Source: an uncultured Candidatus Peribacteria bacterium
Lineage (GTDB): Bacteria > Patescibacteriota > Gracilibacteria > Peribacterales > Peribacteraceae
Assembly: GCA_964506185.1 (NCBI GenBank)
Contig: CAZDKL010000001.1
Location: 23,196 to 87,195, forward strand
DNA: 64,000 nt
Direction of reading: 5' to 3'
In this document: piece by piece, positions 1,644 to 34,922 of the stretch
Layout of the letters: each line of letters begins with the position of its first letter
Position numbering within the stretch: position 1 is the stretch's first letter
The notes under the pieces: model-generated
Told to the model about the DNA's origin: nothing
What the model saw: only the letters and a program-made list of their open reading frames with translations
Databases searched by the model: none
Program-made: the position numbers and the translations under genes

Positions 1644-1671
1644 TTGACTGATGTAAATAATAGTTTACGAT
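1644..1671 (+). promoter_or_regulatory. putative sigma70-like promoter of GC-rich cassette 1
   Basis: TTGACT (1644-1649), 16 nt, TACGAT (1666-1671). This is a consensus match only. Confidence 0.3.
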
Positions 1672-1736
1672 TAATTTGACCACCAACTTAAACGTATTTC
1701 GGTCACAATGTCCTTTCTTACACACGGGAGAACGTC

Positions 1737-2051
1737 ATGCATCTTGACAGAGTTTCCAGCCAGTATCGTTGCATCAGCCTCAAGCCAAACCAGGATTACC
1801 ATTGGCTTTCGAGCGCTCAGCGCCATGGGGGCGACCCCCTGACAGTGCGTGTTCAGAAGGCGGCAGGGAAAGGTGAATACACCAACCTCGTCCTGAAAGT
1901 ACGCTCCGTCCAAGCAGTTGATCCGCCTGCCGGCAGCAGCCAAGCCGACCAGGAATGCTACTTGGTCAAAGGATTCGCCGAAGGCGAACCGATGGAGATC
2001 CTCATCGACATCGGTCCGGACAAAAACGGTCGGACCAAGATCGAGGAGTGA
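1737..2051 (+). CDS. hypothetical protein, GC-rich cassette 1 (104 aa)
   Basis: GGGAGA (1726-1731) lies 5 nt upstream of the ATG. Third codon positions are GC-rich in this frame. A hairpin terminator sits 24 nt after the stop. I recognise no family. Confidence 0.55.
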   Translation: MHLDRVSSQYRCISLKPNQDYHWLSSAQRHGGDPLTVRVQKAAGKGEYTNLVLKVRSVQAVDPPAGSSQADQECYLVKGFAEGEPMEILIDIGPDKNGRTKIEE

Positions 2052-2074
2052 AGTCCCGCAAAGAAGGGGCACCC

Positions 2075-2112
2075 AAATCGCCGACTGGCTTTCAGCCGGC
2101 GATTTCGTTAAT
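2075..2112 (+). terminator. hairpin terminator after cassette 1
   Basis: AAATCGCCGACTG..CAGCCGGCGATTT stem with one mismatch, then a T-containing tail (cgttaatgttt). Confidence 0.5.
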
Positions 2113-2114
2113 GT

Positions 2115-2142
2115 TTGACATATTAAATTTCGAGTGTATAGT
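2115..2142 (+). promoter_or_regulatory. putative promoter of the 2156 gene
   Basis: TTGACA (2115-2120), 16 nt, TATAGT (2137-2142), 13 nt upstream of the ATG. There is no SD in between. Confidence 0.4.
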
Positions 2143-2155
2143 TAGATGCTAACTT

Positions 2156-2743
2156 ATGTCAGATAGCACCCTAGAACGGATTTGGACAATCCATGAAGAA
2201 GACGCATGGGAGGCATTTCAAGAACAGGGCGTTATTAAAGGAGATGGACGTAGGATTATTCATGATCACAGAAAAGCATACAGGTGGATGATGCGTCAGA
2301 TGAAAGACCGCATACCGGGTTACGGCGGCGGCTATCCTGTTTGGGCTTATTCAAGATGGGCGCCTGATGAACCAAAACCTGACGTAAATGATTGCGTCGA
2401 TCCTTCACCAAAAAGATTAGTGATGCTTGAGTGCGAAGTGCCAAGAGATCGGATTCTAAAAAGTGATGTGGAGCTTTGGAATTTCGTCTTGAATGGAACT
2501 GAATATCTTGGAAGAAATGAACAAGAGGAGGAAGCTTGGGAAGCGCGAGCACGGAGTGGCAAAGTTCATCATGCGACACTTGCAAAAGAAATGCGTGATA
2601 GTTGGATGTTAATGTTTGAACTAACAAATGACAGAGGAGATAAGGATTGGCTCGGAGATGCAAACAGCAATGCTATTCAAGCTGCAATCGAACAAATCAC
2701 ATTAGATCAGGTTAAAAAGATTGAGCATTTTGTGATTAATTAA
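2156..2743 (+). CDS. hypothetical cytoplasmic protein (possibly DUF3841-like)
   Basis: 195-aa ORF with host-like composition. YPVWAYSRW and LECEVPRDRILKSDVELWNFVLN resemble my memory of DUF3841. Unverified. Confidence 0.65.
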   Translation: MSDSTLERIWTIHEEDAWEAFQEQGVIKGDGRRIIHDHRKAYRWMMRQMKDRIPGYGGGYPVWAYSRWAPDEPKPDVNDCVDPSPKRLVMLECEVPRDRILKSDVELWNFVLNGTEYLGRNEQEEEAWEARARSGKVHHATLAKEMRDSWMLMFELTNDRGDKDWLGDANSNAIQAAIEQITLDQVKKIEHFVIN

Positions 2744-2771
2744 AAAGAAGACCCTCGGCGGAAACCGAGGG
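2741..2771 (-). terminator. hairpin terminator of cassette 2 (may act bidirectionally)
   Basis: CCCTCGG-cggaaa-CCGAGGG (2752-2771). On the minus strand it is followed by TCTTCTTTTT. Confidence 0.55.
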
Positions 2772-2816
2772 CCTGAAGACAGGTGCGTTGACTAGCGAAT
2801 GTTGTGCCGAGAATCG

Positions 2817-3239
2817 CTACTTCTCGAGGACTTCGCAGCTCCAAAGGAGTCGACAGAGCAACCCCCTCAGATTTGCAGCTCGCGCTTCCACGGGGTCGTC
2901 CGTCAGTCGTTCGACGACTGCGTAGTACTTCGCGGACTTGCGCAGATGCATTTGCTCGTTTTCGGAATCCGTGGACACGAGATGTCGATGAGCTTTCGCC
3001 AATTTCCTAGCGGCGAATAAGTTTGTCTCACCAACTTCCTCGACCTCGTCCAACGTTTCCCGCATGAGCTTGGCGCTCACTTCTTGCCCCTTAGCCATCT
3101 TCTCGGTGCAGGGGCGAAACGAGTCCCAAAACTCCGCCTTCTCGACGGCAGACTTTGCCGCCTTCTGAAGGCTAGCATCGTCGGCGACCACGTTTCCGCA
3201 GATCCCGACACACAACACCACCAACATCCAATAACGCAT
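2817..3239 (-). CDS. hypothetical secreted helical protein, GC-rich cassette 2 (141 aa)
   Basis: The start was moved to ATG 3239, preceded by AAGGAA. The N-terminus MRYWMLVVLCVGICGNVVA-DD looks like a Sec signal peptide. The rest is charged and helical. I recognise no family. Confidence 0.6.
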   Translation of the reverse strand: MRYWMLVVLCVGICGNVVADDASLQKAAKSAVEKAEFWDSFRPCTEKMAKGQEVSAKLMRETLDEVEEVGETNLFAARKLAKAHRHLVSTDSENEQMHLRKSAKYYAVVERLTDDPVEARAANLRGLLCRLLWSCEVLEK

Positions 3240-3450
3240 GCTACGTTCCTTGTGTAAGTACTCCATTCGCAGACACAAAAACACTTGGGGCAAACCATGC
3301 CAACATACCAAACGCATAATGCATCCTCCGGAGCAGCTGACCCACGGCCAGCACCATAGCGCACTATGCAAGACTATTTGCACACTGCGCTATGGTTTAT
3401 TCAAGGAATAACACCTGTCAAAGATCAATCTGCCTAAGCAGATAAAGTAT

Positions 3451-3478
3451 ATTATACGTATTTTCTGAGTATAATCAA
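3451..3478 (-). promoter_or_regulatory. putative promoter of cassette 2
   Basis: Minus strand TTGATT (3478-3473), 16 nt, TATAAT (3456-3451). The ~200-nt leader contains the inverted repeat CCATAGCGCA..TGCGCTATGG (about 3353-3394). Confidence 0.4.
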
Positions 3479-3493
3479 TGTCTACTTTTTGGC

Positions 3494-5209: not shown

Positions 5210-5253
5210 AAACTGATGATAGAAAAGGTTTACAAAGAGTACAATGCCATCCA

Positions 5254-5676
5254 ATGTCTGCAGTCCACTTGCACGCCAAGCAATTTTCCAAATTCTCCGT
5301 TACAGGCACAGTTACAACGATAGTCGACCTGGGATCCCTGACGTTTTTTATGGAGATATTGAAAATTCCACTCAGGCCTTCCGTAGGCTCTGCGGCACTG
5401 ATTGGATTCACCGTGGCATTCTTTGTGAATAAATACTGGAGCTTCAAAAATGGTGAGAAACAATTATTTAAGCAATATTCCCGCTTTATTGCGGTCTATG
5501 CTGTCAGCTTTTTTATTGGAGTCGGTTTTACGATATTAATTACAGAATCATTTGAGCTTCAGTATATAATCTCTCGTCTATTGGCAATTATACTCTGCGG
5601 ACTTTGGAATTATTTATGGCTTCACCATGTAGTATTCGACAACTCACCACAAACTCCTCTTGAAGATTCTCTTTAG
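5254..5676 (+). CDS. GtrA-family membrane protein
   Basis: 140 aa with 4 TM segments. KFSVTGTVTTIVDLG and FFVNKYWSF signatures are present. Confidence 0.8.
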   Translation: MSAVHLHAKQFSKFSVTGTVTTIVDLGSLTFFMEILKIPLRPSVGSAALIGFTVAFFVNKYWSFKNGEKQLFKQYSRFIAVYAVSFFIGVGFTILITESFELQYIISRLLAIILCGLWNYLWLHHVVFDNSPQTPLEDSL

Positions 5677-6387
5677 AATTAAACTTCTGTATTCACCAAG
5701 AGTTTTGAACAGTTTCATTTTTGATTTACCTTTCTTAAGACCGTAATCATAAACAAGAGGAGCCTCAGAATTTTTATTGGAGAAATCTCTGACTTTTAAT
5801 AAGACTTCCAAGTTCGCTGCGAATGATTTTTGCGTGATAAATTGATCCTGATACTTCTCGAATGCTTTCTTAATGATTCGCGCTGAATATCCTCTGTAAA
5901 AAATTGTGTAGTCCGTAACTCCTTTTGTGCGAAAGAAGATTTTGAGCACTGTATTTACAACCCCGCTTCCAAAAGTTCTTATGAGCGGGAAGTTTTTGTA
6001 CTTTCCGCCTTTGATGTATCTGGATGCAACGACAATATCTGACTCGTTGGCAATCATATCAATCATTTGCGGCATTACACTCAAATCAGAAGTACAATCT
6101 CCTTCAATTATGAATATTACATCGTCATCTGACGCGAGCTCGCTCGCTTTTTTTAGTCCGTCATAAAAAGTTTTTGGAACTCCTGCATTTTGTTCATGAA
6201 CAACGATCTCCATATCTATTTTGTTTAGATACTCCTTTGCAATCTCAAGCGTTCTATCACTGCTTCCATCGTCGACCAAAACAATTTTTTTGCTTACGGG
6301 GATATTAAGAGCAAGTAAATCATCAAGAAGCCTGGCTATGTTCCCCTCCTCATTGAACGCCGGAATGATTATGTAAGCAGTTGACAC
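5644..6387 (-). CDS. family 2 glycosyltransferase (polyprenyl-phosphate sugar synthase-like)
   Basis: IIIPAFNEEGNI..VLVDDGSSDRT..IFIIEGD matches GT2 DxD architecture. Confidence 0.85.
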   Translation of the reverse strand: MSTAYIIIPAFNEEGNIARLLDDLLALNIPVSKKIVLVDDGSSDRTLEIAKEYLNKIDMEIVVHEQNAGVPKTFYDGLKKASELASDDDVIFIIEGDCTSDLSVMPQMIDMIANESDIVVASRYIKGGKYKNFPLIRTFGSGVVNTVLKIFFRTKGVTDYTIFYRGYSARIIKKAFEKYQDQFITQKSFAANLEVLLKVRDFSNKNSEAPLVYDYGLKKGKSKMKLFKTLGEYRSLILKRIFKRSLW

Positions 6388-6431
6388 ATGCTGATAATAT
6401 CAACAATTTAAGAAATTCATATACATAAACG

Positions 6432-6464
6432 AAGCCCGAGCGGTATGAAAACCAACTCGGGCTT
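6432..6464 (-). terminator. hairpin terminator of cassette 3
   Basis: AAGCCCGAG..CTCGGGCTT stem. On the minus strand it is followed by the T-rich cgtttatgtatatg. Confidence 0.5.
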
Positions 6465-6504
6465 GTGTGGGGCCGCCATGATAGTGGCAGCGCTTCCCAC
6501 TGCA

Positions 6505-6930
6505 TTAACCGACGGCGCACGCCTCGCGGGTTTGGGACATCGCAGCGACGTCCTCAACGAAACCCCGCGAAAAGCGGAATGTGCCGTCCATGTTGTCCAG
6601 GAAGAAACCGAGATCGACGAGATCGCTAACCATCCTTGCGGAGGATTCCCCGATGTCATCGGGGGCGAAATCGGCCCATCGTCCTGCTTCTTGCGCGTAT
6701 CGCAACGCGTTTTCGGCGCAGCCCTCGAGACCAGAGGCCCCAAAGGTGCCGGTCGAGTTGAAGTGAACGATATCCCCAGGCTGGATTGCGTGGTCGTCAT
6801 CGGCGTTTTGCTGGTTCAAGGTGAACCGCAGAGTTTTTCCGTGCTGATAAACGCCCCACGTACCGGCCCTTCTTCCGCCACGATTCTCGATCAATACTTC
6901 GATTTCCGTCCAGTCGGCCATGTTGAACAT
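6505..6930 (-). CDS. hypothetical protein, GC-rich cassette 3 (141 aa)
   Basis: The start was set at ATG 6930, preceded by TAGGAG plus a 7-nt spacer. Line 6541-6600 has 36/60 GC. I recognise no family. The antisense 169-aa ORF is judged a shadow. Confidence 0.6.
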   Translation of the reverse strand: MFNMADWTEIEVLIENRGGRRAGTWGVYQHGKTLRFTLNQQNADDDHAIQPGDIVHFNSTGTFGASGLEGCAENALRYAQEAGRWADFAPDDIGESSARMVSDLVDLGFFLDNMDGTFRFSRGFVEDVAAMSQTREACAVG

Positions 6931-6965
6931 GCCAAAGCTCCTAAAAAAGATTGAACAACTATGCA

Positions 6966-7025
6966 GGTAGGACCTCTGTGTTCCACCCGCACCAAAACTA
7001 ACTCCAGAAAACACAGAGGACTACC
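6966..7025 (-). promoter_or_regulatory. nested leader hairpin of cassette 3
   Basis: Inner stem CCTCTGTGTT (6973-6982) pairs with AACACAGAGG (7010-7019). Outer stem is GGTAG/CTACC. The architecture resembles 29305-29355. Confidence 0.4.
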
Positions 7026-7054
7026 TACTTTGATGTAAAAGAACACTCTATAAT

Positions 7055-7082
7055 ATTATATCCTATATTGGATATTAGTCAA
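7055..7082 (-). promoter_or_regulatory. putative promoter of cassette 3
   Basis: Minus strand TTGACT (7082-7077), 16 nt, TATAAT (7060-7055). It begins 20 nt downstream of the tRNA-Thr 3' end. Confidence 0.45.
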
Positions 7083-7101
7083 ATAGCTTATATAAGCCAA
7101 A

Positions 7102-7176
7102 TGGAGCCGCCCACGAGATTTGAACTCGTGACCCCCTCCTTACCATGGAGGTGCTCTACCACTGAGCTAGGGCGGC
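7102..7176 (-). tRNA. tRNA-Thr (anticodon GGU), CCA encoded
   Basis: GCCGCCC-TA-GCTC AGTGGTA GAGC-A-CCTCC AUGGUAA GGAGG-GGGTC-ACGAG TTCAAAT CTCGT-GGGCGGC-T-CCA folds as a canonical cloverleaf. Confidence 0.9.
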
Positions 7177-17334: not shown

Positions 17335-17431
17335 CAATTAACAATGAACAATTGACAATTGACAATGCGCAAGCGAGAACAAGCTTTGCGTCTCTTTAGA
17401 ATTGTCAATTATCAATTCTCAATTATCAATT
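17335..17431. repeat. word-palindrome repeat, CAATTGACAAT/ATTGTCAATT family, copy 1
   Basis: caattaacaatgaacaattgacaattgacaat, then a GC-containing core (gcgcaagc..gctttgcg), then attgtcaattatcaattctcaattatcaatt. Confidence 0.8.
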
Positions 17432-17475
17432 TTTCCAAGCGACATTAATAGCAACAACCGCATCTTTTACGTATA

Positions 17476-18438: not shown

Positions 18439-18486
18439 TTGGCTTATTAGCAGATTAGCTAATCTGCTAATTGCTAATCTGCTAAT
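18426..18486. repeat. word-palindrome repeat, AGCAGATTAGC family, copy 2
   Basis: gcagattagctgattggcttattagcagattagctaatctgctaattgctaatctgctaat. The last ftsX codons (cag att agc tga) are made of the word. Confidence 0.8.
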
Positions 18487-18508
18487 GGCGATCTGATACT
18501 ATATATGC

Positions 18509-24857: not shown

Positions 24858-24859
24858 GT

Positions 24860-25459
24860 CTATATTTCAGTTTCCAAGCCTTCTGCTCTATTAGCCCGCC
24901 TTGCGCAAAGAAATAGATAGTCGCTGAGTCTGTTTAAGAATATCTGAATCTGCTCATTGATCTTCCTGTCCTCCGAAGCTTTAGCGCAGGAGGACTCCTC
25001 CTCTGCAAGTCTGACCGTGCATCTCTCCGCTCTCCTACAAACCGTACGAGCCTGATGTAGAAATGACCCCAGCTTTGAGCCGCTCGGAAGTATGAATCTC
25101 TTTAGCTCAGGTAAAGCTGATTCTAGCTCTTCTATCCATTCATCAATAACTCTGACTTCGTCGGATGACACTCTTTTTATATTCACCTGAGAATCCTTAG
25201 GGGTAGCAAGATCTGAACCTACACCAAAGAGAAGACGCTGAATTTCAAATAACTGCTTACGCAGGCGGGACGGTGGTTCGTCCCCGCTCACCACAGGCTC
25301 TGTCCCGCCCTGCGGTAGCAGGGAGATTACAACACCCAAGATAGAATTCAACTCATCAACTGTTCCGTATGCCTCAAGTCTTAAGCCACCTTTCGAAACT
25401 CGCTCCCCCGTTAGCAAACGTGAGAATCCACCATCGCCGGTACGAGTTGTAACTGACAT
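24860..25459 (-). CDS. PduO-type ATP:cob(I)alamin adenosyltransferase-family protein
   Basis: TRTGDGGFS..G.RVSKGGLRLEAYGTVDELNS is typical. The start was set at ATG 25459 (MSVTTRTGDGG); the ORF extends to 25483 into the repeat. Confidence 0.8.
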   Translation of the reverse strand: MSVTTRTGDGGFSRLLTGERVSKGGLRLEAYGTVDELNSILGVVISLLPQGGTEPVVSGDEPPSRLRKQLFEIQRLLFGVGSDLATPKDSQVNIKRVSSDEVRVIDEWIEELESALPELKRFILPSGSKLGSFLHQARTVCRRAERCTVRLAEEESSCAKASEDRKINEQIQIFLNRLSDYLFLCARRANRAEGLETEI

Positions 25460-25470
25460 CGGACACTCAT

Positions 25471-25500
25471 TCTCAATTGTCAATTATCAATTGTCAATTG
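25471..25500. repeat. word repeat, CAATTGTCAATT family, copy 2
   Basis: tctcaattgtcaattatcaattgtcaattg. It fills the spacer between the pheT stop and the next gene. Confidence 0.75.
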
Positions 25501-27873: not shown

Positions 27874-27903
27874 AGGGGTAGCATAGAAATATTAGAACAA
27901 ATT

Positions 27904-27968
27904 GGCAATTAGCTTGTTAGCAGATTAGCAGATTAGCCAATCTGCTAATTGCCAATCTGCTAATTGCC
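27904..27968. repeat. word-palindrome repeat, AGCAGATTAGC family, copy 3
   Basis: 64 of 65 nt identical to 1192-1256. Confidence 0.85.
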
Positions 27969-28019: not shown

Positions 28020-28265
28020 ATGTTCCCCTTCCACACCATGAGCAAATCTAACCCTTCTTCCATACAGGCGCTTCGATGGGTAGTAAACGTACTAACGTTT
28101 CTCACAATGCTTGCATCCCTCGCAGGTATCTATGAAACCCATTTTGTAGGAGCAGGAGCTACATTTGGAACTACAGGCGCTTCACTCTCCCTTATCGCAT
28201 TTGCAATAACATCACACCTCTGGATAAAGACTATGGCGTGTTGTATGGGAAACTGTGAAAAATAA
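28020..28265 (+). CDS. small membrane protein (81 aa, 2 TM, Cys-rich C-terminus)
   Basis: Hydrophobic ORF ending ..TMACCMGNCEK. Host-like composition. Confidence 0.5.
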   Translation: MFPFHTMSKSNPSSIQALRWVVNVLTFLTMLASLAGIYETHFVGAGATFGTTGASLSLIAFAITSHLWIKTMACCMGNCEK

Positions 28266-28280
28266 TCTTGTATAACAAAG

Positions 28281-28302
28281 ACGGCAGCTTGGAGGCTGCC
28301 GT
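28281..28302 (-). terminator. hairpin terminator of cassette 4 (possibly bidirectional)
   Basis: ACGGCAGC-ttggag-GCTGCCGT. On the minus strand it is followed by ctttgttatacaag. Confidence 0.5.
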
Positions 28303-28341
28303 CCTGTTCGCCCTGATTTTCGGAATGGGCGGGACTTTCCG

Positions 28342-29166
28342 TCAGTTGAGTTTGATGAACGGATCGCTTTGTCCGGGGAACAGTCGGTTGCCGGAAGCGG
28401 CGACCGAGTTCTTCGGCTTCACTCCCCATGCAACAAGCTGCTTGTGCGTCGCGTAGCGGAAGTAGTAGAGTGAATAGGCGTAAGGTCGCGGTTGGAAATC
28501 GGAATCCGCAAGTGGATTATCGAAATCTTCACCGACACCAGTGCCAATGCCTTTTCCACCTCGCGACTGCGACTTGACCGGCTCTGGGTGTTCGCCGCGG
28601 AAAACCGCGACAACGATGGTTCCCAAAGCTGTTGGGTCGTCTTTCTGATCGACTGCAAACGAGTTGGCTTCCTTGGTAACGACAAAACGTTTGCCACCTT
28701 GGTAACCGGTTTGCCAGCCCTTGCAGGCGTAAGCACGATTGCCGATCACAACGCCCATCGGCCATGTCTCTTCTTGGTTGATGCCCACTGCCGGAATCTG
28801 CTTACCCGTGAGGGTGCACCGACCGTCTACAGCCACACCAACACAGACCTCTTTCGCGACGACATGAGACCACATGTTGATACCGTAGACGTCGCCCTTC
28901 TTGAGTTCCACGTAGCGGTAGTAGCGATCCGGATTCTTGCCTTCGCCCTTGATGAACGAGGGAATCGTACCGGACGGCGGCGCGTAGATCGCCGCAGGGC
29001 CTTCGTTGTCGACTTCGATACTGAGCGTAACGCAGTCGCCTCGGATTGTCTGGCTGAAATTCGCCGCAGCCGCCTGGGATCCAGCCCCCGGATGGAACAT
29101 GACCACCAGAGCGGTGGCAACCAACGCGAGAGCACCAACAGAACCAAAAACGAGTTTGCGCGTCAT
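28342..29166 (-). CDS. hypothetical secreted/anchored protein, GC-rich cassette 4 (274 aa)
   Basis: The start was set at ATG 29166, preceded by CAGGAGG plus 7 nt. The N-terminus MTRKLVFGSVGALALVATALVVMF..AAAA is signal-like. Lines 28501-28740 have 50-63% GC. I recognise no family. Several overlapping ORFs are shadows. Confidence 0.65.
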   Translation of the reverse strand: MTRKLVFGSVGALALVATALVVMFHPGAGSQAAAANFSQTIRGDCVTLSIEVDNEGPAAIYAPPSGTIPSFIKGEGKNPDRYYRYVELKKGDVYGINMWSHVVAKEVCVGVAVDGRCTLTGKQIPAVGINQEETWPMGVVIGNRAYACKGWQTGYQGGKRFVVTKEANSFAVDQKDDPTALGTIVVAVFRGEHPEPVKSQSRGGKGIGTGVGEDFDNPLADSDFQPRPYAYSLYYFRYATHKQLVAWGVKPKNSVAASGNRLFPGQSDPFIKLN

Positions 29167-29304
29167 AATGTGTCCTCCTGGACAAAGTGTTACAGCAGCA
29201 TCCAGACGCATAGGAATACTGCCCTTGACGAAAATGTACCCGTACATCGGGTCGGCATAAGAGAAACTGCTTAGAATTTCCCACATGCCAACCCGACATT
29301 CCTA

Positions 29305-29355
29305 GTAGGCAGGGCATCTGTGTTCGCGATGCGAACACAGGTAAATACCTACCAG
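29305..29355 (-). promoter_or_regulatory. nested leader hairpin of cassette 4
   Basis: Perfect inner stem CTGTGTTCGC (29318-29327) with GCGAACACAG (29331-29340). Outer stem is GTAGG/CCTAC. Same design as 6966-7025. Confidence 0.4.
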
Positions 29356-29385
29356 GTCCTATGCTGCAAATGAGCTATCTATATT

Positions 29386-29414
29386 ATAATAGACATAATT
29401 TAGAATATTGTCAA
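29386..29414 (-). promoter_or_regulatory. putative promoter of cassette 4
   Basis: Minus strand TTGACA (29414-29409), 17 nt, TATTAT (29391-29386). It begins 51 nt downstream of the tRNA-Ser 3' end. Confidence 0.45.
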
Positions 29415-29464: not shown

Positions 29465-29555
29465 TGGCGGAGAGAGGGGGATTCGAACCCCCGAGACCCT
29501 TGCGGGCCTACCCGCACTCCAAGCGGGCGCACTAGACCAACTATGCGATCTCTCC
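29465..29555 (-). tRNA. tRNA-Ser (anticodon GGA), long variable arm, CCA encoded
   Basis: GGAGAGA..CCCGC UUGGAGU GCGGG, variable arm GGCCCGCAAGGGTC, GGGGG TTCGAAT CCCCC, TCTCTCC-G-CCA. Confidence 0.9.
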
Positions 29556-29608: not shown

Positions 29609-29648
29609 TCTTCACTATTCACTATTAACTATTAACTTTTCACTTTTT
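29609..29648. repeat. tandem word repeat (tcactatt/aactatta words)
   Basis: cttcactattcactattaactattaacttttcacttttta. It abuts the permease stop codon. Confidence 0.65.
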
Positions 29649-30555: not shown

Positions 30556-30559
30556 GAAT

Positions 30560-30685
30560 CTATTCTACACGTCCCAGCCTGTCTTTTGGTTCATAAAACT
30601 TAAGTTCTAGCTTCTTATATATCTCCTCCTCTGTTTTGCCGGCAATAACTGCATCACCCTTAAAAAGCCCATACTCATTGAGCTT
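30560..30685 (-). pseudogene. orphan second copy of the PolX C-terminus (about 41 codons, with its own stop)
   Basis: KLNEYGLFKGDAVIAGKTEEEIYKKLELKFYEPKDRLGRVE aligns with the end of the intact PolX, KLNEYGLFKGDALIASNTEKQIYDALELQYYEPSERISRL. By eye 27 of the 40 aligned positions are identical. Confidence 0.65.
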
Positions 30686-30705
30686 CCGGCCTACGCGCAG
30701 CGTAG

Positions 30706-30797
30706 GTCGCCCACCGTAGACTCCTGAACTCAATTGTATATCTAGATTACAAACTCGCTGCGACTTCGGCCGGCAGGCCATCAGGAGCGAAGGTGGG
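30706..30797. repeat. GC-rich inverted-repeat element between polX and its 3'-end duplicate
   Basis: The arms are CGCCCACCG..TCCTGA (30708-) and TCAGGA-GCGAAGGTGGG (-30797). The same arm sequences occur at 7266-7297. The right arm abuts the polX stop. Confidence 0.6.
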
Positions 30798-31748
30798 CTA
30801 CAATCTGCTAATTCTTTCACTAGGCTCATAGTATTGTAATTCTAATGCATCATATATTTGTTTTTCAGTATTACTAGCTATAAGTGCATCACCTTTAAAG
30901 AGTCCATATTCATTCAGCTTCCACCCTTTCTTAATCGCGACCTTCCTCATTGCAATGTTGTGCTCCTTGGAGCCTGTGAAATATAGGAGGGCCGAACCCC
31001 ACTGATCTTTTTTAACAAATCTGATATCGACGCGCAAACCTGTCTTTAAGTCGAAAGAAAGCTTTTTATCTCCATGAGCTACTACATTTCTAACGTCTTT
31101 TAACTCAGCCACTGCATCAGAAACCTCTTTGGGTTTTGAGGTTACAACCAAAATATCTATATCCCCCACAGTTTCCTTCTCACGACGAAAAGACCCGGCA
31201 ACTTCCGTCTCCTGAACATTCTTAAGTCCTTTTATTTTCTTGATTAACTTATCAACATCATCCTTAACCTCCTCCCGAGGGAATCTTTTGATCCTTTCTT
31301 TAACTCTTTTCGCATTCTCCAGAACTTTCTTCTCCATAAGTTCAGAAAAACGCGGAAGCGACCTAAGCTTTCCTTCTTCCGCAACTTTGATTAAGTCAGC
31401 GACTGTCTTTACACCAAATTCTGACTGGATTTGTCTGACGCATGCAGGGCCTAAGCCCTCAATGTCCATTAGCTCAGCTGGAATATTACCCTGAGTTATT
31501 CGAAGATTCTCCAAAGCAGTCATCTTCCCCGTTTTTAAATATTCAACAATCTTTCCGGCAATCGCATCGCCAATACCGGAGAGCTTCTTAAGTTCTTTCT
31601 CATCTCCGATCTCCGAAACATCCTTATCTAATTCTTCAATGACTTGAGCTGCACGCCTATACGCAGCGGGCTTGAAATCGACTCCTTGTTCTTGAAGAAG
31701 AGCAGCAATCTGACGGAGAAGGCCGGCGATTGCCTTGTTATTTTCCAT
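30798..31748 (-). CDS. polX: family X DNA polymerase (Pol beta-like, no PHP domain)
   Basis: HhH motifs (LSGIGDAIAGKI, IEGLGPACVRQI) and the nucleotidyltransferase motif GSFRREKETVGDIDILV. The start was set at ATG 31748 (MENNKAIAGLL). Confidence 0.85.
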   Translation of the reverse strand: MENNKAIAGLLRQIAALLQEQGVDFKPAAYRRAAQVIEELDKDVSEIGDEKELKKLSGIGDAIAGKIVEYLKTGKMTALENLRITQGNIPAELMDIEGLGPACVRQIQSEFGVKTVADLIKVAEEGKLRSLPRFSELMEKKVLENAKRVKERIKRFPREEVKDDVDKLIKKIKGLKNVQETEVAGSFRREKETVGDIDILVVTSKPKEVSDAVAELKDVRNVVAHGDKKLSFDLKTGLRVDIRFVKKDQWGSALLYFTGSKEHNIAMRKVAIKKGWKLNEYGLFKGDALIASNTEKQIYDALELQYYEPSERISRL

Positions 31749-31791
31749 ATATGAATTATACAACAAAATCTAACCTCATTTTTTTGACTAA

Positions 31792-31822
31792 GTCAGACCC
31801 GCCCACGAGGGGCGGGTCTGAC
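31792..31822 (-). terminator. strong GC hairpin downstream of the zinc-finger ORF
   Basis: GTCAGACCCGCCC-acgag-GGGCGGGTCTGAC, a 13-bp stem. The T tract is poor on the minus strand, so terminator function is uncertain. Confidence 0.35.
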
Positions 31823-31854
31823 GTGAATATGGAAGAACTGAAATCTCGGTGCTG

Positions 31855-32073
31855 TTACACCAGCGCCAGCGTAGGCGTTGTCTTCCGTGACCTATCGGGC
31901 GGCAGAGCTTCGTCGGCAAGCCTCAAAGCATCTCGCTCCCTTTCGTTGTGCACACTCATCAGATGAGATGCAAGGCTTCTCCGCACGATTACGCGCGGAC
32001 AATGAGGACATTCGACACGCTGGTTGTGGTGTAATCTGGCCTTTTGGCACATACAACAGATCTCCCTTTCCAT
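31855..32073 (-). CDS. hypothetical small C2H2-like zinc-finger protein (65-72 aa), GC-rich island 5
   Basis: CPHC-x11-H-x4-H (ECPHCPRVIVRRSLASHLMSVH) plus upstream C-x-C..HH. The alternative start ATG 32052 has GGGAG 9 nt upstream. Two overlapping ORFs compete with it. Confidence 0.4.
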   Translation of the reverse strand: MEREICCMCQKARLHHNQRVECPHCPRVIVRRSLASHLMSVHNERERDALRLADEALPPDRSRKTTPTLALV

Positions 32074-32443
32074 CCTCTTGGTTCTTGTGGACTAGTCGCA
32101 AAGCGACCTCCGGAGCGGTAGTTCCACTACCAACAGTGAACTCCGAAAACTAACTTGTGAGAGGATAGATTTCGTCATACAATCGATGCTTTCAATGAAC
32201 AATTTATAAACCCCTAATCCTTCTGGATGGGGGGCAAAACTCTTTATTCTTATTACATCCTGTCAGCGCCCCCTTCTGCATAAATCTTGCAGAGACCAAA
32301 ACAAACCGGAAAAAGGACGTATGAAATAGACATTTCGTGGATATTCTACTCGCCAAGATAACAATGTCAAGGTCTTGTCAATACTGCCGTAGCGGTACAT
32401 AAATTACATATATTGCACTCAAATATAATCATTGAGCATATTC

Positions 32444-32471
32444 TTGAAATATGGCAAAAAGCACGTACAAT
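32444..32471 (+). promoter_or_regulatory. putative promoter of the 32592 ORF
   Basis: TTGAAA (32444-32449), 16 nt, TACAAT (32466-32471). The leader contains the hairpin GGAGGGAGTT..AACTTCCTCC (about 32502-32542). Confidence 0.4.
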
Positions 32472-32591
32472 CGGCTCAGTTCATTGAAATATCAATCTAT
32501 TGGGAGAGGAGGGAGTTTTCTGACTGAACTTCCTCCCCTCCTTGTCTACAAAACCAATTAACTCAGTGTTTAGCGTAGAAAGGGATTCGCG

Positions 32592-32777
32592 ATGTCTGGT
32601 AAGAAGAGAGGTTCTCAACCCACTACCGGTGGGACAGAGAAGCAACACCAGCGTACTATCAGCAAGAGAAAGCAAAAGCAAAAGAATCGACAACGATTCG
32701 AACTTTTGCGCCGAATCAAGAGAGCAAAGAAGAATGGGAATACGGTTTTGGTTGAGAAGCTTCAGGCTCAACTATGA
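32592..32777 (+). CDS. hypothetical very basic small protein (61 aa), island 5
   Basis: AAAGGGA lies 6 nt upstream of the ATG. The sequence is MSGKKRGSQ..KRKQKQKNRQRFELLRRIKRAKK. A terminator follows. Overlapping ORFs compete with it. Confidence 0.4.
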   Translation: MSGKKRGSQPTTGGTEKQHQRTISKRKQKQKNRQRFELLRRIKRAKKNGNTVLVEKLQAQL

Positions 32778-32814
32778 CCACCTTCCACGCTCTCCAGCAG
32801 ACCAACCGAGGCAC

Positions 32815-32863
32815 GCTCCAGACTGGTTGCCCCACAAGGTGACCGGGGCTGGAGCTCTTTTTA
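32815..32863 (+). terminator. compound hairpin followed by a T tract
   Basis: GCTCCA..GCCCC-acaaggtgacc-GGGGC-TGGAGC followed by TCTTTTTA. The T tract overlaps the ahcY stop codon. Confidence 0.45.
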
Positions 32864-34114
32864 TGTACCCTCCCTCCACTCATTCTGGTATTTGACCTGT
32901 TCATCAGTCATCTCATCATACTCAACGCCAATGGCATCGAGTTGCATCTTCGCAATCTCATTATCAATCTCTGCAGGCAAAGTAATTACTTCGGGCTTAA
33001 GCTGACCTTTGTTTTTGACTAAGTACTCGCAAGCCAAAGTCTGTCCGCAGAAACTCAGACTCATTACTTCCGAAGGATGTCCTTCTGCAGATGCTAAGTT
33101 GACGAGCCTTCCCTCTCCCGCAACGTAAACAACCTTGCCGGACTTCATGAGGTACTCATCCAGGTAATGCCTTACTCTTCGTTTGCGCTTAGCGTTTCTT
33201 TCCAGTGCTTCCATATCTATTTCGTTATCGAAGTGGCCTGAGTTTGCAAGAACAACTCCATCCTTCATCTTTTCCATGTGCTCCATGCGGAAGATATGCT
33301 TGTTGCCTGTAACTGTAATAAAGATGTCTCCGAGCTCAGCGGCCTTGCTCATTGGCATAACCCTGTATCCATCAGTAGCAGCTTGAAGTGCATTGAATGC
33401 GTTTACTTCCGTAACGATGACGTTAGATCCCAATCCCTTTGCTCTGAGCGCGCATCCTTTTCCGCAGCTTCCGTAACCTCCAACAACAACCGTCTTTCCT
33501 GCGAATAGAATATTTGTGGATCTGAGTATTCCATCCATAGTGGACTGACCTGTTCCGTAATAGTTATCGAACAAGTGCTTTGTCTTGTTGTCATTGACCG
33601 CGATCATCGGGTACTTGAGTACTCCTTCTTCTTCCATCGCTCGCAGTCTGATGATTCCCGTTGTGGTCTCTTCGCATCCTCCTATTATGTTTGGGATTAG
33701 ATCCGGATGCTTTGTGTGGATCTCTGTAACCAGATCGCATCCGTCATCGATTGTGATATTGGGCTCCGTTTCTATTACAGCATTTAGGAACTTGTAGTAA
33801 TCCTCTTTGCTCTCTCCTTTATATGCCCAAACCAGAACTCCTTCCTCCTCTGCCAAAGCAGCTGCAACATCATCCTGCGTGCTAAGTGGATTGCATCCTG
33901 TGATTGCTACTTTAGCTCCTCCGTCTCGCAGAGTTCTGACCAATACTCCCGTTTCTTTTGTAACATGCAGAGCCAAGCCAATAGTTAAACCTTTGAATGG
34001 CTTCTCTTTGCTCATTCGATCCCTGACTTTCATCAAAGCTCCCATTCGCTTCTCCGCGATCTCTAGATTGAGCCTGCCTTGGTCCGCCAAAGATGAATCT
34101 GTTACATAGGACAT
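32861..34114 (-). CDS. ahcY: adenosylhomocysteinase
   Basis: 417 aa. LALHVTKETGVL..GCNPLSTQDDVAAAL..GYGSCGKGCA (NAD-binding) are typical. Confidence 0.9.
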   Translation of the reverse strand: MSYVTDSSLADQGRLNLEIAEKRMGALMKVRDRMSKEKPFKGLTIGLALHVTKETGVLVRTLRDGGAKVAITGCNPLSTQDDVAAALAEEEGVLVWAYKGESKEDYYKFLNAVIETEPNITIDDGCDLVTEIHTKHPDLIPNIIGGCEETTTGIIRLRAMEEEGVLKYPMIAVNDNKTKHLFDNYYGTGQSTMDGILRSTNILFAGKTVVVGGYGSCGKGCALRAKGLGSNVIVTEVNAFNALQAATDGYRVMPMSKAAELGDIFITVTGNKHIFRMEHMEKMKDGVVLANSGHFDNEIDMEALERNAKRKRRVRHYLDEYLMKSGKVVYVAGEGRLVNLASAEGHPSEVMSLSFCGQTLACEYLVKNKGQLKPEVITLPAEIDNEIAKMQLDAIGVEYDEMTDEQVKYQNEWREGT

Positions 34115-34161
34115 TGGAGCGATAGACTAACAGAATATTGAGTTTGATCAATTAAAAGGTC

Positions 34162-34288
34162 GACAATTGACACGGGCGCTTCGCGCCCTCTTAACAGTTA
34201 ACAATTAACTATTTGTTGGTTGTTAACTGTTAATTGTTAATTGTTAAAAGCGAGTCCCGCAAGCGCGGGACGATCGTGTTAACTGTCG
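34162..34288. repeat. word-palindrome repeat, TTAACAGTTAACAATTAAC family, copy 1, with two GC tetraloop hairpins
   Basis: GGGCGC-ttcg-CGCCC; then ttaacagttaacaattaac facing gttaactgttaattgttaattgttaa; then GTCCCGC-aagc-GCGGGAC. Confidence 0.8.
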
Positions 34289-34459
34289 TATTAAAACAAA
34301 CCCGCAACCTGGGCGAACCATAATTACGGAATCTGTTCTGTCATCAGAAAATAAAATAAATCTTATTAACCGAAGACAACTATAGTATAGCAAACTTTAC
34401 ACATTTTCTCAATAGCCTTTTTGAGCCCAGATTTGGAAGTTTCAAGGCGTTTTAAAGGC

Positions 34460-34489
34460 GGGACTTTCCGGAATTATCCGGAAAGTCCC
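34460..34489 (-). terminator. perfect 13-bp hairpin terminator of cassette 7
   Basis: GGGACTTTCCGGA-atta-TCCGGAAAGTCCC, 31 nt after the stop at 34520. Confidence 0.55.
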
Positions 34490-34519
34490 TTGTTTCCCAT
34501 CGGAGCACTCCATTGCTCA

Positions 34520-34780
34520 TTACGACTTGCGTCCGTTCAAGTCCCCCAAAACTCTGCCTGTGGAAATGTGAATAAGGACATCTGCTTCGGTCAACCTGAC
34601 CCACATGTCATCCTCCGAAAGTCCCAGGGCAAGCCCCAACTTCATTCGGATCTGACAGTTGTAAGGTTTCTGCCATCCTCCCCTTTCGATTCCTAGGGTA
34701 AGCCGCCGAATCCAATTGGCAACACGCCTCTCGATCGGCCAAGCCGGGTACACTTTCCTGCGCATCATTACTTGCGGCAT
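34520..34780 (-). CDS. hypothetical protein, GC-rich cassette 7 (86 aa)
   Basis: AAGGAG plus 7 nt lies upstream of ATG 34780. The product is basic and Trp-rich (RRKVYPAWPIERRVANWIRRL..). I recognise no family. Confidence 0.55.
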   Translation of the reverse strand: MPQVMMRRKVYPAWPIERRVANWIRRLTLGIERGGWQKPYNCQIRMKLGLALGLSEDDMWVRLTEADVLIHISTGRVLGDLNGRKS

Positions 34781-34884
34781 CGAACATCTCCTTGCATCCT
34801 GGCGTTAAAAAGGTTTGCGCTCCAACAGGTCCCCGCACCTTTGCACAAAGAAACAGGGACCCATTGGTATCTGTGATGTAAATG

Positions 34885-34922
34885 AACAAATACAAAAACA
34901 CCTCCCTGAGGTGTAAGGGAGG
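34885..34922 (-). terminator. rho-independent-type terminator with no obvious upstream gene
   Basis: Minus strand CCTCCCT-tacacctc-AGGGAGG followed by TGTTTTTGTATTTG. The only upstream minus-strand candidate is a 25-codon ORF (34947-35024). Confidence 0.45.

Follow-up and report, generated by a model that had tools for sequence, protein, structure and literature searches.

The window, a 64,000-nt stretch of the genome of an ultra-small marine bacterium of the Candidatus Peribacteria (CPR/Patescibacteria), contains a series of self-contained, foreign-looking single-gene units lodged in spacers, a description that both composition and expression signals support. The closest matches of its PheT are found in Peribacteraceae and Peribacter MAGs (87-89% amino acid identity). 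At 44.0%, the overall GC content is moderate and not that of the AT-rich genome assumed in an earlier, sequence-only reading. Each unit would be monocistronic: a sigma70-type promoter of its own precedes a long, structured 5' leader that ends in an SD, and the ORF is followed by an intrinsic-terminator-like hairpin.

The o1737 unit (1644-2110, forward strand) combines a promoter-like site (1644-1671), a 65-nt leader, the SD GGGAG, an ORF at 1737-2051 (104 aa, 56.5% GC, GC3 0.66) and a terminator hairpin at ~2085-2099. On the reverse strand, the o2817 unit (2749-3478) runs from a promoter at 3478-3451 through a ~210-nt structured leader and an ORF at 3239-2817 (140 aa, 56.0% GC, GC3 0.70) to a terminator at 2774-2749. 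Its product has a signal-peptide-like N-terminus, and the members of the family, 31-43% identical, all keep a hydrophobic one. The o6505 unit (6382-7098, reverse strand) occupies the entire spacer from the 3' end of tRNA-Thr(GGT) (7102-7176, reverse strand), which lies directly upstream, to the start codon of GT2; it consists of a promoter (7082-7055), a hairpin (7033-6959), an ORF at 6930-6505 (141 aa, 57.7% GC, GC3 0.68) and a terminator hairpin (~6461-6435). The o28342 unit (28268-29414, reverse strand) likewise lies directly downstream of a tRNA gene, tRNA-Ser(GGA) (29465-29555, reverse strand), with a promoter (29414-29386), a hairpin (29357-29301), an ORF at 29166-28342 (56.6% GC, GC3 0.63) and a terminator hairpin (~28303-28280). 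It encodes 274 aa with an N-terminal signal/anchor and a beta-sandwich, and belongs to a family of more than 60 clusters in which 9 of 34 members match DUF7918. The window has two tRNA genes, and each is followed by a unit.

The two remaining GC-rich units are also on the reverse strand. That of o31855 (31800-32370) has a promoter at 32370-32343, a ~270-nt leader, an ORF at 32073-31855 (72 aa, 54.3% GC) with a C-x2-C-x12-H-x4-H motif, and a GC-rich hairpin (31836-31800) that lacks a T tract. Translation probably starts at the ATG of position 32052, for a product of 65 aa, and a relative (P0020, 79% aa identity) begins at this second ATG. The o34520 unit (34460-34930) shows leader hairpins at 34923-34900 and ~34868-34820, the SD AAGGAG, an ORF at 34780-34520 (86 aa, 52.9% GC) and a palindromic terminator (34489-34460). 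A seventh unit, o32592 (32426-32858, forward strand), has a promoter at 32444-32471, a leader hairpin, a candidate ORF at 32592-32777 and a terminator-like site at 32845-32858; the candidate product of 61 aa is very basic (19/61 K+R, 31%). On inspection, the translations bear out the signal-peptide-like N-termini, the C2H2-like Cys/His motif and the very basic protein noted previously.

Six of the seven ORFs differ sharply from the genome background in computed composition. Their GC content (52.9-57.7%) lies 4.6-7.0 standard deviations above that of 36 core genes (43.6±2.0%, range 37.8-47.9%), and no fragment of equal length from any core gene is as GC-rich. ORF 32592-32777, which had been counted with them, is not enriched (45.2% GC, z 0.8). 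In 150-nt windows of at least 53% GC, runs longer than 350 nt occur at 1692-2126, 2734-3292, 6398-6942, 28253-29233, 31763-32131 and 34487-34876 (52.6-55.8% GC); milder runs of ~50% GC, at 24938-25440 and 45578-46028, fall within ordinary genes. GC3 ranges from 0.58 to 0.70 in the six and averages 0.425 in the ORFs of 150 aa or more, among which two patch ORFs are counted; GC1 and GC2 of the six are likewise elevated. The dinucleotide signature is also shifted (delta* 0.113 vs a null of 0.043±0.013, z 5.2). Pooled codon usage of the patches is uncorrelated with that of the window core genes (r -0.18) and resembles that of genes at loci of higher-GC Peribacteria (r 0.63 for L004 and 0.57 for L100). 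Expression-linked codon bias does not account for the patch GC, because the GC3 of the ribosomal protein S6 gene is ordinary (0.48).

The sites upstream of the units are the top sigma70-like sites of the scans, while promoter-like sites in general are no commoner than in shuffled sequence. Those of o6505 and o28342 match the consensus at 11/12 positions, those of o2817 and o32592 at 10/12 and that of o1737 at 9/12; these five had been reported. For 31855-32073 no convincing promoter had been seen, and an 11/12 site ~270 nt upstream of it (32370-32343) had been overlooked. Folding confirms leader hairpins in four units (z -2.8 to -4.75, with -4.75 for o2817 and -4.2 for o34520), and GC-rich 3' hairpins after the ORFs are present.

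Comparison with sister genomes, proposed earlier as a check, reveals presence/absence differences at the spacers of the units, which are among the few that vary between otherwise collinear genomes. For each of the six genes, some sister lineages hold an orthologue at the corresponding position; in others the gene is absent, or its place is taken by DUF559 or GIY-YIG genes, by palindromic repeats or by a serine-recombinase element of 8 kb. The o1737 unit is missing from the L095 and L101 loci, and its positional orthologue (P0100, 64% aa identity) comes after NifU in L104-L107. The o2817 unit is missing from L095, L101 and L104; in the loci compared (L093-96, L101-103 and L104-107) the block made up of o2817 and DUF3841 is missing, with DUF559 in its stead. 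The o6505 segment is missing from L104-L107 and from L093-L096, and in the latter the tRNA directly adjoins the ATG of GT2; in L101-L103 an orthologue (P0006, 73% aa identity) takes the same position. Further along, L085-87 carry o28342, o31855 and o34520, but in L001, L089, L003 and L005 these genes are lacking, truncated or replaced. At the same locus in L085-L087, orthologues of o28342 (P0002, 78%) and o34520 (73% aa identity) are found, and a truncated o28342 orthologue (P0003) adjoins the serine-recombinase element in L089-L091. Positional homologues of o31855 exist in L085, L086, L087 and L005 (67% aa identity) and in L003 (37%), and a DUF559 gene fills its spacer in L001. Window segment 34417-35638 is missing from L001 and L003, and the o32592 segment from L005 and L001; tblastn of o32592 against the sister loci searched gave zero matches. 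For none of these polymorphisms do the junction sequences distinguish gain from loss.

A recent insertion is not supported: five of the six genes have a same-locus orthologue in a sister species at a synonymous divergence of 0.7-2.3, and linkage of the o6505 family to tRNA-Thr(GGT) reaches L110. Coalescence relative to core genes goes both ways, dS being lower for o28342 than for PheT (0.71 vs 1.55) and higher for o6505 than for its flanks (1.93 vs 1.36-1.39).

The six ORFs are real, fast-evolving accessory genes. On balance, with marginally better than even probability, the units belong to a flexible gene pool, sit in spacers that are recombination hotspots and reached this genome from GC-richer Peribacteria, with partial amelioration of their composition and no dedicated cassette machinery. 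Piecemeal horizontal acquisition, as suggested before, remains the best reading, with a probable source within the same radiation. Members of the o28342 family in genomes of 35.5% and 45% GC are host-like (GC3 0.31 and 0.39), so that GC-richness is not intrinsic to the family; a point against import is that P0008, the nearest relative of o28342, also stands out as GC-rich in the genome that carries it. Among polarised changes at third positions of o28342, 53 go from GC to AT and 24 from AT to GC, compared with ~1:1 in core genes (equilibrium simulation, P ~0.007-0.014). Implied ancestral GC3 is high for o1737 (0.90), which counts against this reading; for o28342, o31855 and o34520 it is 0.69-0.74, values that might be compatible with a GC-rich donor, for example Peribacter riflensis, with genomes of 58.5% GC (PMC4736985). 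An o2817-family member in the Peribacteria sequence CP082927.1 (P0097) is compositionally native to its locus of ~50% GC. The donors would be GC-richer Peribacteria, a group reaching 58.5% GC. DNA uptake was probably followed by homologous recombination via conserved flanks among close lineages; for more distant donors, illegitimate joins may have used conserved sequence, for instance tRNA genes, as anchors. After arrival, the genes would have been passed on and exchanged while their composition slowly approached the 44% GC of the background, and would repeatedly have been lost or overwritten. Among the products may be a beta-sandwich protein that is secreted or anchored, a helical one that is secreted and a small zinc-finger-like one.

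Could the genes instead be native? As lineage-specific Peribacteria genes, their GC-rich structured mRNA would be kept by selection (e.g., for mRNA stability or translational control) and differential loss alone would explain the mosaic, a less likely alternative of appreciable probability. The tRNA-Thr(GGT), leader hairpin and o6505-family linkage extends to L110, where family member P0033 comes after tRNA-Thr(GGT) and core proteins are 58-77% identical to those of the window. Between the window and L101, the S/W state of o6505 synonymous sites is essentially randomised (mismatch 0.41 of a possible 0.43), and still GC3 is 0.67-0.69 in both; the more distant members in L110 and L114 are likewise GC-rich. 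Neutral decay from any ancestor cannot yield a GC3 of ~0.68 after such saturated turnover; either selection or a renewed influx of alleles out of a GC-rich pool is required. Against synonymous shuffles, three ORFs show excess mRNA structure (z -4.1, -2.5 and -2.4; -4.08 for o2817), with eight control genes at -1.7 to +0.8, and the six differ from the controls as a group (43/48 pairwise comparisons), which hints at selection on RNA. The long stable leaders and the named homologues, all CPR or unclassified 'bacterium', also fit native genes. However, the excess is not significant for o1737, o28342 and o34520, and host-like o28342 relatives, net GC to AT flux, the ordinary S6 gene and a shift that extends beyond synonymous sites, to every codon position and to the dinucleotide signature, argue against native origin. 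Selection may have acted alongside import, given the o6505 GC3 and the structured mRNAs.

A dedicated cassette system, integron-like or directed by hairpins or tRNAs, with a recombinase encoded elsewhere and the leader hairpin as recombination site, is improbable. It would account for units after both tRNA genes, for hairpins at both unit ends, for two unrelated tRNA-adjacent ORFs sharing a promoter and hairpin module, and for spacers recurrently targeted by other elements. However, the 5' hairpins are unrelated to the 3' ones, every unit has its own promoter, and the distal junctions carry no att-like repeats, tRNA 3'-end direct repeats or common motif. As stated previously, the window has no mobility gene: integrase, transposase and recombinase Pfam domains are absent from 42 of the larger window ORFs outside the seven and from precomputed lists for genes called at 15.5-37.9 kb. 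None lies beside the units in sister loci either, the single serine recombinase belonging to the separate 8-kb element of host-like composition.

Slightly less probable again is a donor outside the CPR, namely a high-GC organism that serves the episymbiont as host or lives next to it, a kind of source given as an example at first. Patch GC above that of the genome would agree with it, as would the lack of a taxonomic label for most homologues. An exhaustive phmmer search, which took in the six ORFs and left out o32592, found homologues for all six. About three quarters of these are nameless; in the named minority, on which restriction to the CPR depends, every entry is a hypothetical protein assigned to Patescibacteria, Peribacteria, Gracilibacteria, Parcubacteria or an unclassified 'bacterium'. 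The neighbourhoods of the homologue loci examined are CPR-like, and codon usage points to higher-GC Peribacteria. No donor genome was found, the nearest relatives outside the clade being 33-44% identical, and PHROG and PADLOC gave no matches to the patch ORFs.

It is highly improbable that the patches encode structured non-coding RNAs, with ORFs that arose by chance. GC-rich sequence does hold long ORFs on both strands, and the regions fold stably. However, no patch matches Rfam even at E<=1, and the proposed frames have dN/dS values of 0.08-0.28 (0.28 for o1737, 0.11 for o6505, 0.14-0.18 for o28342, 0.08 for o31855 and 0.16 for o34520) vs 0.67-0.98 in opposite-strand ORFs (0.98 for that opposite o1737). 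Together with confident AF2 models of conserved protein families (pLDDT 80.7, for o28342, and 87.1), these values show that the six are protein-coding. Assembly chimerism or contamination, supported solely by the composition jumps themselves, is refuted as far as public assemblies allow and has negligible probability, since four assemblies from other samples (JGI, two ENA, Logan) are 100% identical over 15501-37873, all junctions included, three Logan assemblies from other runs encode an identical o6505 protein with gene calls matching the 1.7-7 kb units in order and size, and sister species carry orthologous units at the same loci.

The leader hairpin of the two tRNA-adjacent units is a new lead. 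Copy 1 (6959-7033, reverse strand) reads GTAGGTA-N5-CTGTGTT ... AACACAGA ... CCTACCTGC in the o6505 leader; copy 2 (29301-29357, reverse strand), in the o28342 leader, is detected with a model built from o6505-family leaders only (21.8 bits, E 2e-4). In 387 kb of sequence from Peribacteria and other CPR bacteria, the hairpin occurs at two loci only; it is found at 0/80 viral loci and is missing from the other four units, a distribution that speaks against a cassette site. It lies within the variable segment, outside the fixed flank, is kept across relatives with compensatory changes and co-evolves with the o6505 family across deep divergence, which fits a regulatory element. The promoter and leader-hairpin module is conserved and has no counterpart in Rfam, and its hairpin is an RNA element not described before.

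The window derives from a marine member of the class Peribacteria, within the CPR/Patescibacteria, since its phenylalanyl-tRNA synthetase beta chain (PheT) shares 87–89% identity with the corresponding proteins in MAGs of marine 'Candidatus Peribacteraceae' and 'Peribacter'. Positions 36–64 kb are occupied by a sugar and polysaccharide biosynthesis cluster. Rfam places tRNA-Thr(GGT) at 7102–7176 and tRNA-Ser(GGA) at 29465–29555, and behind each of the two, in the same orientation, comes a GC-rich unit, that is, a promoter-like site, leader, Shine-Dalgarno (SD) sequence, single ORF and 3' hairpin within one spacer. An assembly artefact is excluded as the source of these units: positions 15501–37873, which span all AT/GC junctions of four units, recur at 100% identity in a JGI metagenome contig, two ENA assemblies and one Logan assembly. 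Three more Logan assemblies encode an identical o6505 protein (the ORFs are named by their lower window coordinate), and their called genes agree with the 6505, 2817 and 1737 units and the adjacent genes both in their order and in their sizes.

The sequence-only reading described seven GC-rich ORFs in an AT-rich genome. The observation is largely right, but the background was overstated, as the window has 44.0% GC, and the patches are real for six of the seven ORFs. Six GC runs (150-nt windows of at least 53% GC, extending over more than 350 nt) match o1737, o2817, o6505, o28342, o31855 and o34520, while the seventh ORF, 32592–32777, is ordinary (45.2% GC, z 0.8). Two additional runs of about 50% GC, at 24938–25440 and 45578–46028, lie inside ordinary genes. 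The six ORFs have 52.9–57.7% GC (z-scores 4.6–7.0) versus 43.6±2.0% (range 37.8–47.9%) in 36 core genes, and none of the equal-length fragments of core genes is as GC-rich. Their GC3 is 0.58–0.70 versus a mean of 0.425 in ORFs of at least 150 aa, GC1 and GC2 are raised too, and the dinucleotide signature departs from the null (delta* 0.113 versus 0.043±0.013; z 5.2).

Comparisons with sister orthologues show the ORFs to be protein-coding. dN/dS is 0.08 for o31855, 0.11 for o6505, 0.14–0.18 for o28342, 0.16 for o34520 and 0.28 for o1737; it is 0.02–0.11 in neighbouring core genes and 0.67–0.98 in the long opposite-strand ORFs of the same patches. One exhaustive phmmer search with the concatenated ORFs yields homologues for each of the six. 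The o28342 family comprises more than 60 clusters at 50% identity, and for o6505 and o2817 several family members were recovered at 29–44% identity, with clear conserved motifs. All homologues with a named source are hypothetical proteins from Patescibacteria, Peribacteria, Gracilibacteria, the 'Parcubacteria group' or an unclassified 'bacterium'. None of the proteins has an above-threshold Pfam match. A phage or defence origin finds no support either, as PHROG and PADLOC profiles do not match the proteins and a scan of viral contigs returned no relatives of o28342.

What do these genes encode? A hydrophobic N-terminal segment in o28342 precedes a beta-sandwich predicted with confidence (pLDDT 80.7), for which Foldseek finds nothing significant in the PDB (best E 0.03, TM at most 0.25). 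The protein scores 14.5 bits (E 0.037) against Pfam DUF7918, with a gathering threshold of 27 bits, and 9 of 34 family members match DUF7918, the best with E 1.6e-8; a distant relationship is likely. The o6505 model (pLDDT 87) has no significant Foldseek match in the PDB (best E 0.37), and its C-terminal half bears a weak winged-helix-like resemblance in structure comparison. A profile search against PDB sequences gave no match. The o2817 protein and its relatives begin with a signal-peptide-like segment, and o31855, whose true start is probably the second ATG, carries the motif C-x2-C-x12-H-x4-H. Two of the genes, o2817 and o28342, probably encode secreted or surface proteins.

The expression signals noted from sequence alone are mostly present. 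The scans place their strongest promoter-like sites ahead of the units, including a TTGACA-16-TAGAAT site about 270 nt upstream of 31855–32073 that had been overlooked, and the hairpins in four leaders are stabler than shuffled sequence (z -2.8 to -4.75). The idea that the patches are structured RNA genes is unsupported, because Rfam, at gathering and even at permissive thresholds (E<=1) over patches and leaders, finds no such match, and only the two tRNAs in the window.

The clearest view of the units comes from sister genomes, whose core proteins are about 80–90% identical to those of the window and which are collinear with it save for a few spacers. In the lineage of loci L085–L087 (L numbers denote homologous loci from sister or other genomes), o28342 (78% aa identity), o31855 (67%) and o34520 (73%) occupy the same positions. 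In the L001 and L089–L091 lineage, o28342 is truncated N-terminally and separated from tRNA-Ser by an element of about 8 kb (L089 1441–9920, with a remnant at L001 7883–9075; also present at L005 2519–9163), which encodes a large serine recombinase (PF07508 and Zn_ribbon_recom), a 1,942-aa protein and three small ORFs and is host-like in composition. A DUF559 endonuclease gene replaces o31855 in its spacer in that same lineage, and 1.2 kb with o34520 and a pilin-like gene is missing both there and from L003. The entire 717-nt o6505 unit is absent from L093–L096, where the tRNA-Thr 3' end lies 4 nt from the start of GT2, the gene beyond the unit. L101–L103 have an o6505 orthologue (73% aa identity) and a DUF559 gene in place of o2817, DUF3841 and o1737, and L104–L107 carry an o1737 orthologue followed by DUF559, with no o6505. 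Presence and absence of the units thus vary as a mosaic over a set of fixed hot spots.

Five spacers in all hold a fixed position between conserved core genes and differ in content among close relatives, the alternatives being DUF559 or GIY-YIG genes, palindromic repeats, a pilin-like ORF and the recombinase element. Orthologues of the GC-rich ORFs keep a GC content of 0.52–0.57 and a GC3 of 0.53–0.68 in every sister genome, against backgrounds of 0.42–0.44. The recombinase element, like the DUF559 and GIY-YIG genes, has a host-like or AT-rich composition. The DUF559/GIY-YIG genes of the hot-spot spacers (L095 11760–12350; L001 5712–6215; L101 6056–6457; L104 6534–6875; L085 11001–11258) resemble selfish endonuclease genes in competition for these sites. 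DUF559 has a Vsr-like endonuclease fold, and the L095 gene is flanked by inverted GGGGTGAGG/CCTCACCCC-type repeats.

Several further features were seen at or near these spacers. Beside o34520 lies an AT-rich ORF of 174 aa (35099–35623, +; 38% GC, GC3 0.28) that is present in the window's lineage only, has no Pfam match and by inspection has a type IV prepilin-like N-terminus. At L094 8388–8556, the 5' part of tRNA-Thr and its upstream region are partly duplicated around a GC-rich insert of about 60 nt, which is another rearrangement at this tRNA gene. The tRNA-Ser(GGA) gene at L003 8185–8275, the counterpart of window 29465–29555, is inverted relative to PheT, and the adjoining 1.4 kb has no similarity to the window; the tRNA-Ser neighbourhood has therefore been rearranged repeatedly. 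In the window, the end of the o6505 unit contributes the GTG start codon of GT2. In L093, L094 and L096, at the junction equivalent to window 6381/7099, GT2 has no SD; with its start 4 nt past tRNA-Thr, this suggests that the GT2 mRNA may be leaderless there, perhaps released by tRNA 3' processing.

Why are these genes so GC-rich? Expression-linked codon bias can be rejected, since GC3 is ordinary in the ribosomal S6 gene. Gene conversion biased towards GC at hot spots is considered unlikely, as neither adjacent genes nor leaders are GC-enriched. Several results point to import from GC-richer relatives. The pooled codon usage of the ORFs is uncorrelated with that of the window's core genes (r -0.18) and correlates with that of genes from higher-GC Peribacteria loci (r 0.57–0.63). 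Peribacter riflensis genomes average 58.5% GC (PMC4736985), and an o2817-family member in the Peribacteria genome CP082927.1 is compositionally native to its locus of about 50% GC. Members of the o28342 family can be host-like (GC3 0.31 in a 35.5% GC genome, 0.39 in a 45% GC genome), so that being GC-rich is not inherent to the protein family. Across three lineages, polarised changes at third positions of o28342 number 53 GC->AT versus 24 AT->GC, whereas core genes are balanced; simulation of equilibrium sequences, parsimony bias included, gives such an excess with P of about 0.007–0.014. Turnover of the strong/weak (S/W) state at synonymous sites implies a common-ancestor GC3 of 0.69–0.74 for o28342, o31855 and o34520, which may fit a GC-rich donor such as Peribacter riflensis; o31855 and o34520 are likewise compatible with amelioration. 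Synonymous divergence of the units departs from that of their neighbours in both directions (dS 0.71 for o28342 versus 1.55 for PheT; 1.93 for o6505 versus 1.36–1.39 for flanking genes), as expected for genes exchanged independently of the core. Horizontal acquisition, already proposed from the sequence, is the best-supported explanation, with two amendments: the named homologues are CPR or unclassified, which points to a source within the CPR, and acquisition mostly dates far enough back for sister species to share the genes.

The main rival holds that selection on the mRNA alone keeps these genes GC-rich, and some results do not fit simple amelioration. Between the window and L101, synonymous third-position S/W mismatch in o6505 is 0.41, almost randomised against a saturation value of 0.43, and both copies retain a GC3 of 0.67–0.69. 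Neutral decay towards 0.41 would demand an impossible ancestor, which contradicts neutral amelioration. Distant family members are GC-rich too, in L110 (a 41.5% GC locus) and in L114. Furthermore, the mRNAs of o2817 (z -4.08), o6505 (-2.50) and o31855 (-2.40) are more stably folded than permutations of their synonymous codons, whereas eight control genes range from -1.68 to +0.79. These results leave either repeated re-import of alleles from a GC-rich pool or mRNA selection that helps to keep the genes GC-rich. On the most far-reaching reading, the units would form a CPR gene class of their own, with mRNAs under selection for GC-richness and strong structure, a subset of them standing under a previously undescribed tRNA-linked leader hairpin that acts as a shared regulatory or exchange module before unrelated ORFs. 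We consider this unlikely. If it were true, the GC-rich composition would be a functional property and would not be left over from transfer, and the hairpin would represent a cis-regulatory RNA family new to Patescibacteria.

GC-rich small genes were also seen in two unrelated CPR loci. Small ORFs with GC3 0.63–0.73 lie at L113 6694–7905, in a 45% GC locus. The GC-rich block at L108 1086–5753 comprises a MoxR-like ATPase, a VWA protein, a 653-aa protein and P0008, an o28342-family protein with GC3 0.76; the Mur genes beside the block have GC3 0.40.

The leader hairpin deserves separate attention. The o6505 and o28342 units, the two that follow tRNA genes, encode unrelated proteins and have in common a module that starts with the -35 box, includes the -10 box and ends in a long hairpin (6959–7033 and 29301–29357, both on the minus strand) with the consensus GTAGGTA-N5-CTGTGTT ... 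ACACAGA ... CCTRCCT. Plain pairwise alignment of the two leaders is not significant (26 versus 17.7±2.4, maximum 28), so that the case has to be made by motif counts and a non-circular covariance model. The window contains exactly two copies of the half-motif GTAGGTA-N5-CTGTGTT, against zero expected by chance. A covariance model built from four o6505-family leaders only recovers the o28342 leaders of the window (21.8 bits, E 2e-4) and of L085 (17.4 bits, E 6e-3) and nothing further in 220 kb. The leader alignment reaches the orthologous leaders in L085, L101 and L110, and a diverged copy lies upstream of the o6505-family gene of L114. In the alignment of six sequences, 95.6% of the cells of the 19-bp stem are paired, compared with 28–51% when the partners are slid, and three stem pairs have changed on both sides. 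The six-sequence model, applied to 387 kb of related loci and to 80 viral loci, yields no extra copy.

Loop length ranges between 9 and about 32 nt with the stems preserved, which favors an RNA structure over a double-stranded DNA operator, and a LexA-type operator is rejected on this ground. The 14-nt half-motif has at least 120 matches in viral contigs; the 80 listed loci among them lack the hairpin, and those matches are attributed to chance. In L110 and L114, gene callers begin the ORF inside the 3' arm of the hairpin ('MSTEVLPA', 'MSVEVLPA'). Because L114 has a strong SD and ATG farther downstream, the conservation of this arm would appear to act at the RNA level. The hairpin has no Rfam family and could serve in mRNA stabilization, protein binding or translation control. 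It is a candidate for a new regulatory RNA that can be put to the test.

Other repeats and structured sites also occur in the window. Four intergenic palindromes of about 70 nt with 8-nt-period TTAGCAGA / TCTGCTAA repeats, located just after genes at 1187–1256, 18421–18490, 27891–27968 and 49094–49172, are probably lineage-specific bidirectional terminator-like elements. A second palindromic family of about 96 nt, with CAATTGACAATTG-type repeats, is found at 17336–17432 and also at 25466–25503, 34191–34251, 40942–40980 and 45852–45875; its copies in L001 (439–542, 2947–3047, 3980–4077 and 9863–9958) sit in exactly those spacers where the window has its GC-rich units. The S-adenosylhomocysteine hydrolase gene (32861–34114) is preceded by a conserved leader at 34255–34420 (-) that is 90% identical to L003 over 128 nt. 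This leader has a TTGAGA-17-TATACT promoter and two hairpins, the second followed by a U-run, with some pairs kept by double changes in L001, and no Rfam match; it may be an attenuator or riboswitch-like element. A PolX-family (DNA polymerase beta-like) gene is split between 30560–30829 and 30798–31766 (-), with the thumb domain on a separate overlapping ORF of 89 aa, so that it could be a frameshift or a pseudogene. Gene callers split it in other assemblies too.

How, then, do the units move? As first noted, there is no mobility gene: Pfam scans of 42 larger window ORFs besides the seven, and precomputed Pfam lists for the genes called at 15.5–37.9 kb, contain no integrase, transposase or recombinase. 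A new cassette mechanism, also suggested at that stage, receives no support. Alignment with empty sites reveals no duplication of a tRNA 3' end, a repeat search likewise shows none, the units have no common boundary motif, the hairpins at a unit's two ends are unrelated, and every unit has its own promoter. The o6505 junctions carry an imperfect 10-nt GCTTAYATAA repeat, which may be coincidental; it is not accepted as a target-site duplication because the tRNA-GT2 sequence of the sister genomes is not what simple duplication or deletion leaves. The junctions do not tell an ancestral empty site from a deletion. The linkage of the o6505 family to tRNA-Thr(GGT) in L110 argues for an old unit, with its empty sites the outcome of loss. 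On the simplest account, related lineages would acquire and shed units by homologous recombination in the conserved flanks, and the original entries from more distant donors may have occurred by illegitimate or homology-facilitated recombination. Type IV pili have been reported in Peribacteria (PMC4736985).

CPR bacteria have tiny genomes with few recognisable mobile elements, and how their gene content is renewed is consequently poorly understood. The present set of loci shows such renewal at single-gene resolution: a few spacers act as exchange points where orphan genes, selfish endonuclease genes, repeats and one integrative element swap between sister species. The probable secreted or surface proteins among them are of the kind expected to mediate host contact. 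Genes imported with a GC content above that of the genome, and remaining so, also offer a simple marker for such genes in other Patescibacteria. Current views are not overturned, and the locus is a clean example, not a new principle; the persistence of o6505 in a GC-rich, structured state and the shared leader hairpin are noteworthy and deserve follow-up.

Among known systems, the leader hairpin is closest to structured 5'-UTR elements, such as the mRNA-stabilizing stem-loops and protein-binding leaders exemplified by the ompA 5' UTR. It resembles them in having a conserved 19-bp stem with compensatory changes between promoter and SD, and differs in lacking an Rfam family and in preceding two unrelated genes after tRNA genes. 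The Lawrence-Ochman model describes the amelioration of horizontally transferred genes, and the atypical composition at all codon positions, the GC->AT flux of o28342 and three plausible ancestral GC3 values agree with it; o6505 does not fit its neutral version. Non-autonomous IS200/IS605-type or MITE/PATE elements, with similar subterminal hairpins at both ends and multiple dispersed copies, are no match, since the 5' and 3' hairpins of the units differ and the 5' hairpin occurs at just two loci per genome region, with no others in 387 kb. The analogy with integron cassettes, drawn by the sequence-only reading, holds for small single-ORF units with a hairpin-forming 3' end. Unlike cassettes, the units show no intI, attI or evident attC consensus, are dispersed over 33 kb instead of standing in an array and have their own promoter and long leader, and their 3' hairpins are terminator-like and unrelated in sequence, with no repeat family connecting them.

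As in tRNA-targeted integrative islands with tyrosine or serine recombinases, two units lie directly 3' of tRNA genes, and the tRNA-Ser/o28342 site holds an 8-kb serine-recombinase element in sister genomes. The units differ in being single ORFs without Pfam domains, recombinase or duplicated tRNA 3' end, and the o6505 unit takes up its spacer completely, from the end of the tRNA gene to the following start codon. In natural transformation, homology-facilitated illegitimate recombination, as in Acinetobacter baylyi (discussed in PMC3410848), might account for how foreign single genes were added without an integrase next to a conserved anchor, for instance a tRNA gene; the analysis revealed no donor, anchor or microhomology join. 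Close counterparts are the flexible genomic islands and islets at conserved hot spots of marine bacteria, described in Alteromonas (PMC3698932) and Methylophilaceae (PMC10872708). The units differ from these in being single genes of 0.4–1.1 kb and not multi-gene, in being GC-richer and not AT-richer than the host, and in residing in a CPR genome of the 1-Mb class with no integrase or conjugative element nearby. In both, close relatives carry different genes at fixed positions flanked by conserved core genes, some of these positions lie beside tRNA genes, composition is atypical and content is biased towards surface, secreted and unknown proteins. With varying content at five spacers and an atypical composition in GC, delta* and RSCU, the locus has the hallmarks of hot-spot islets and is a clear example of known genome dynamics that are little documented in the CPR.
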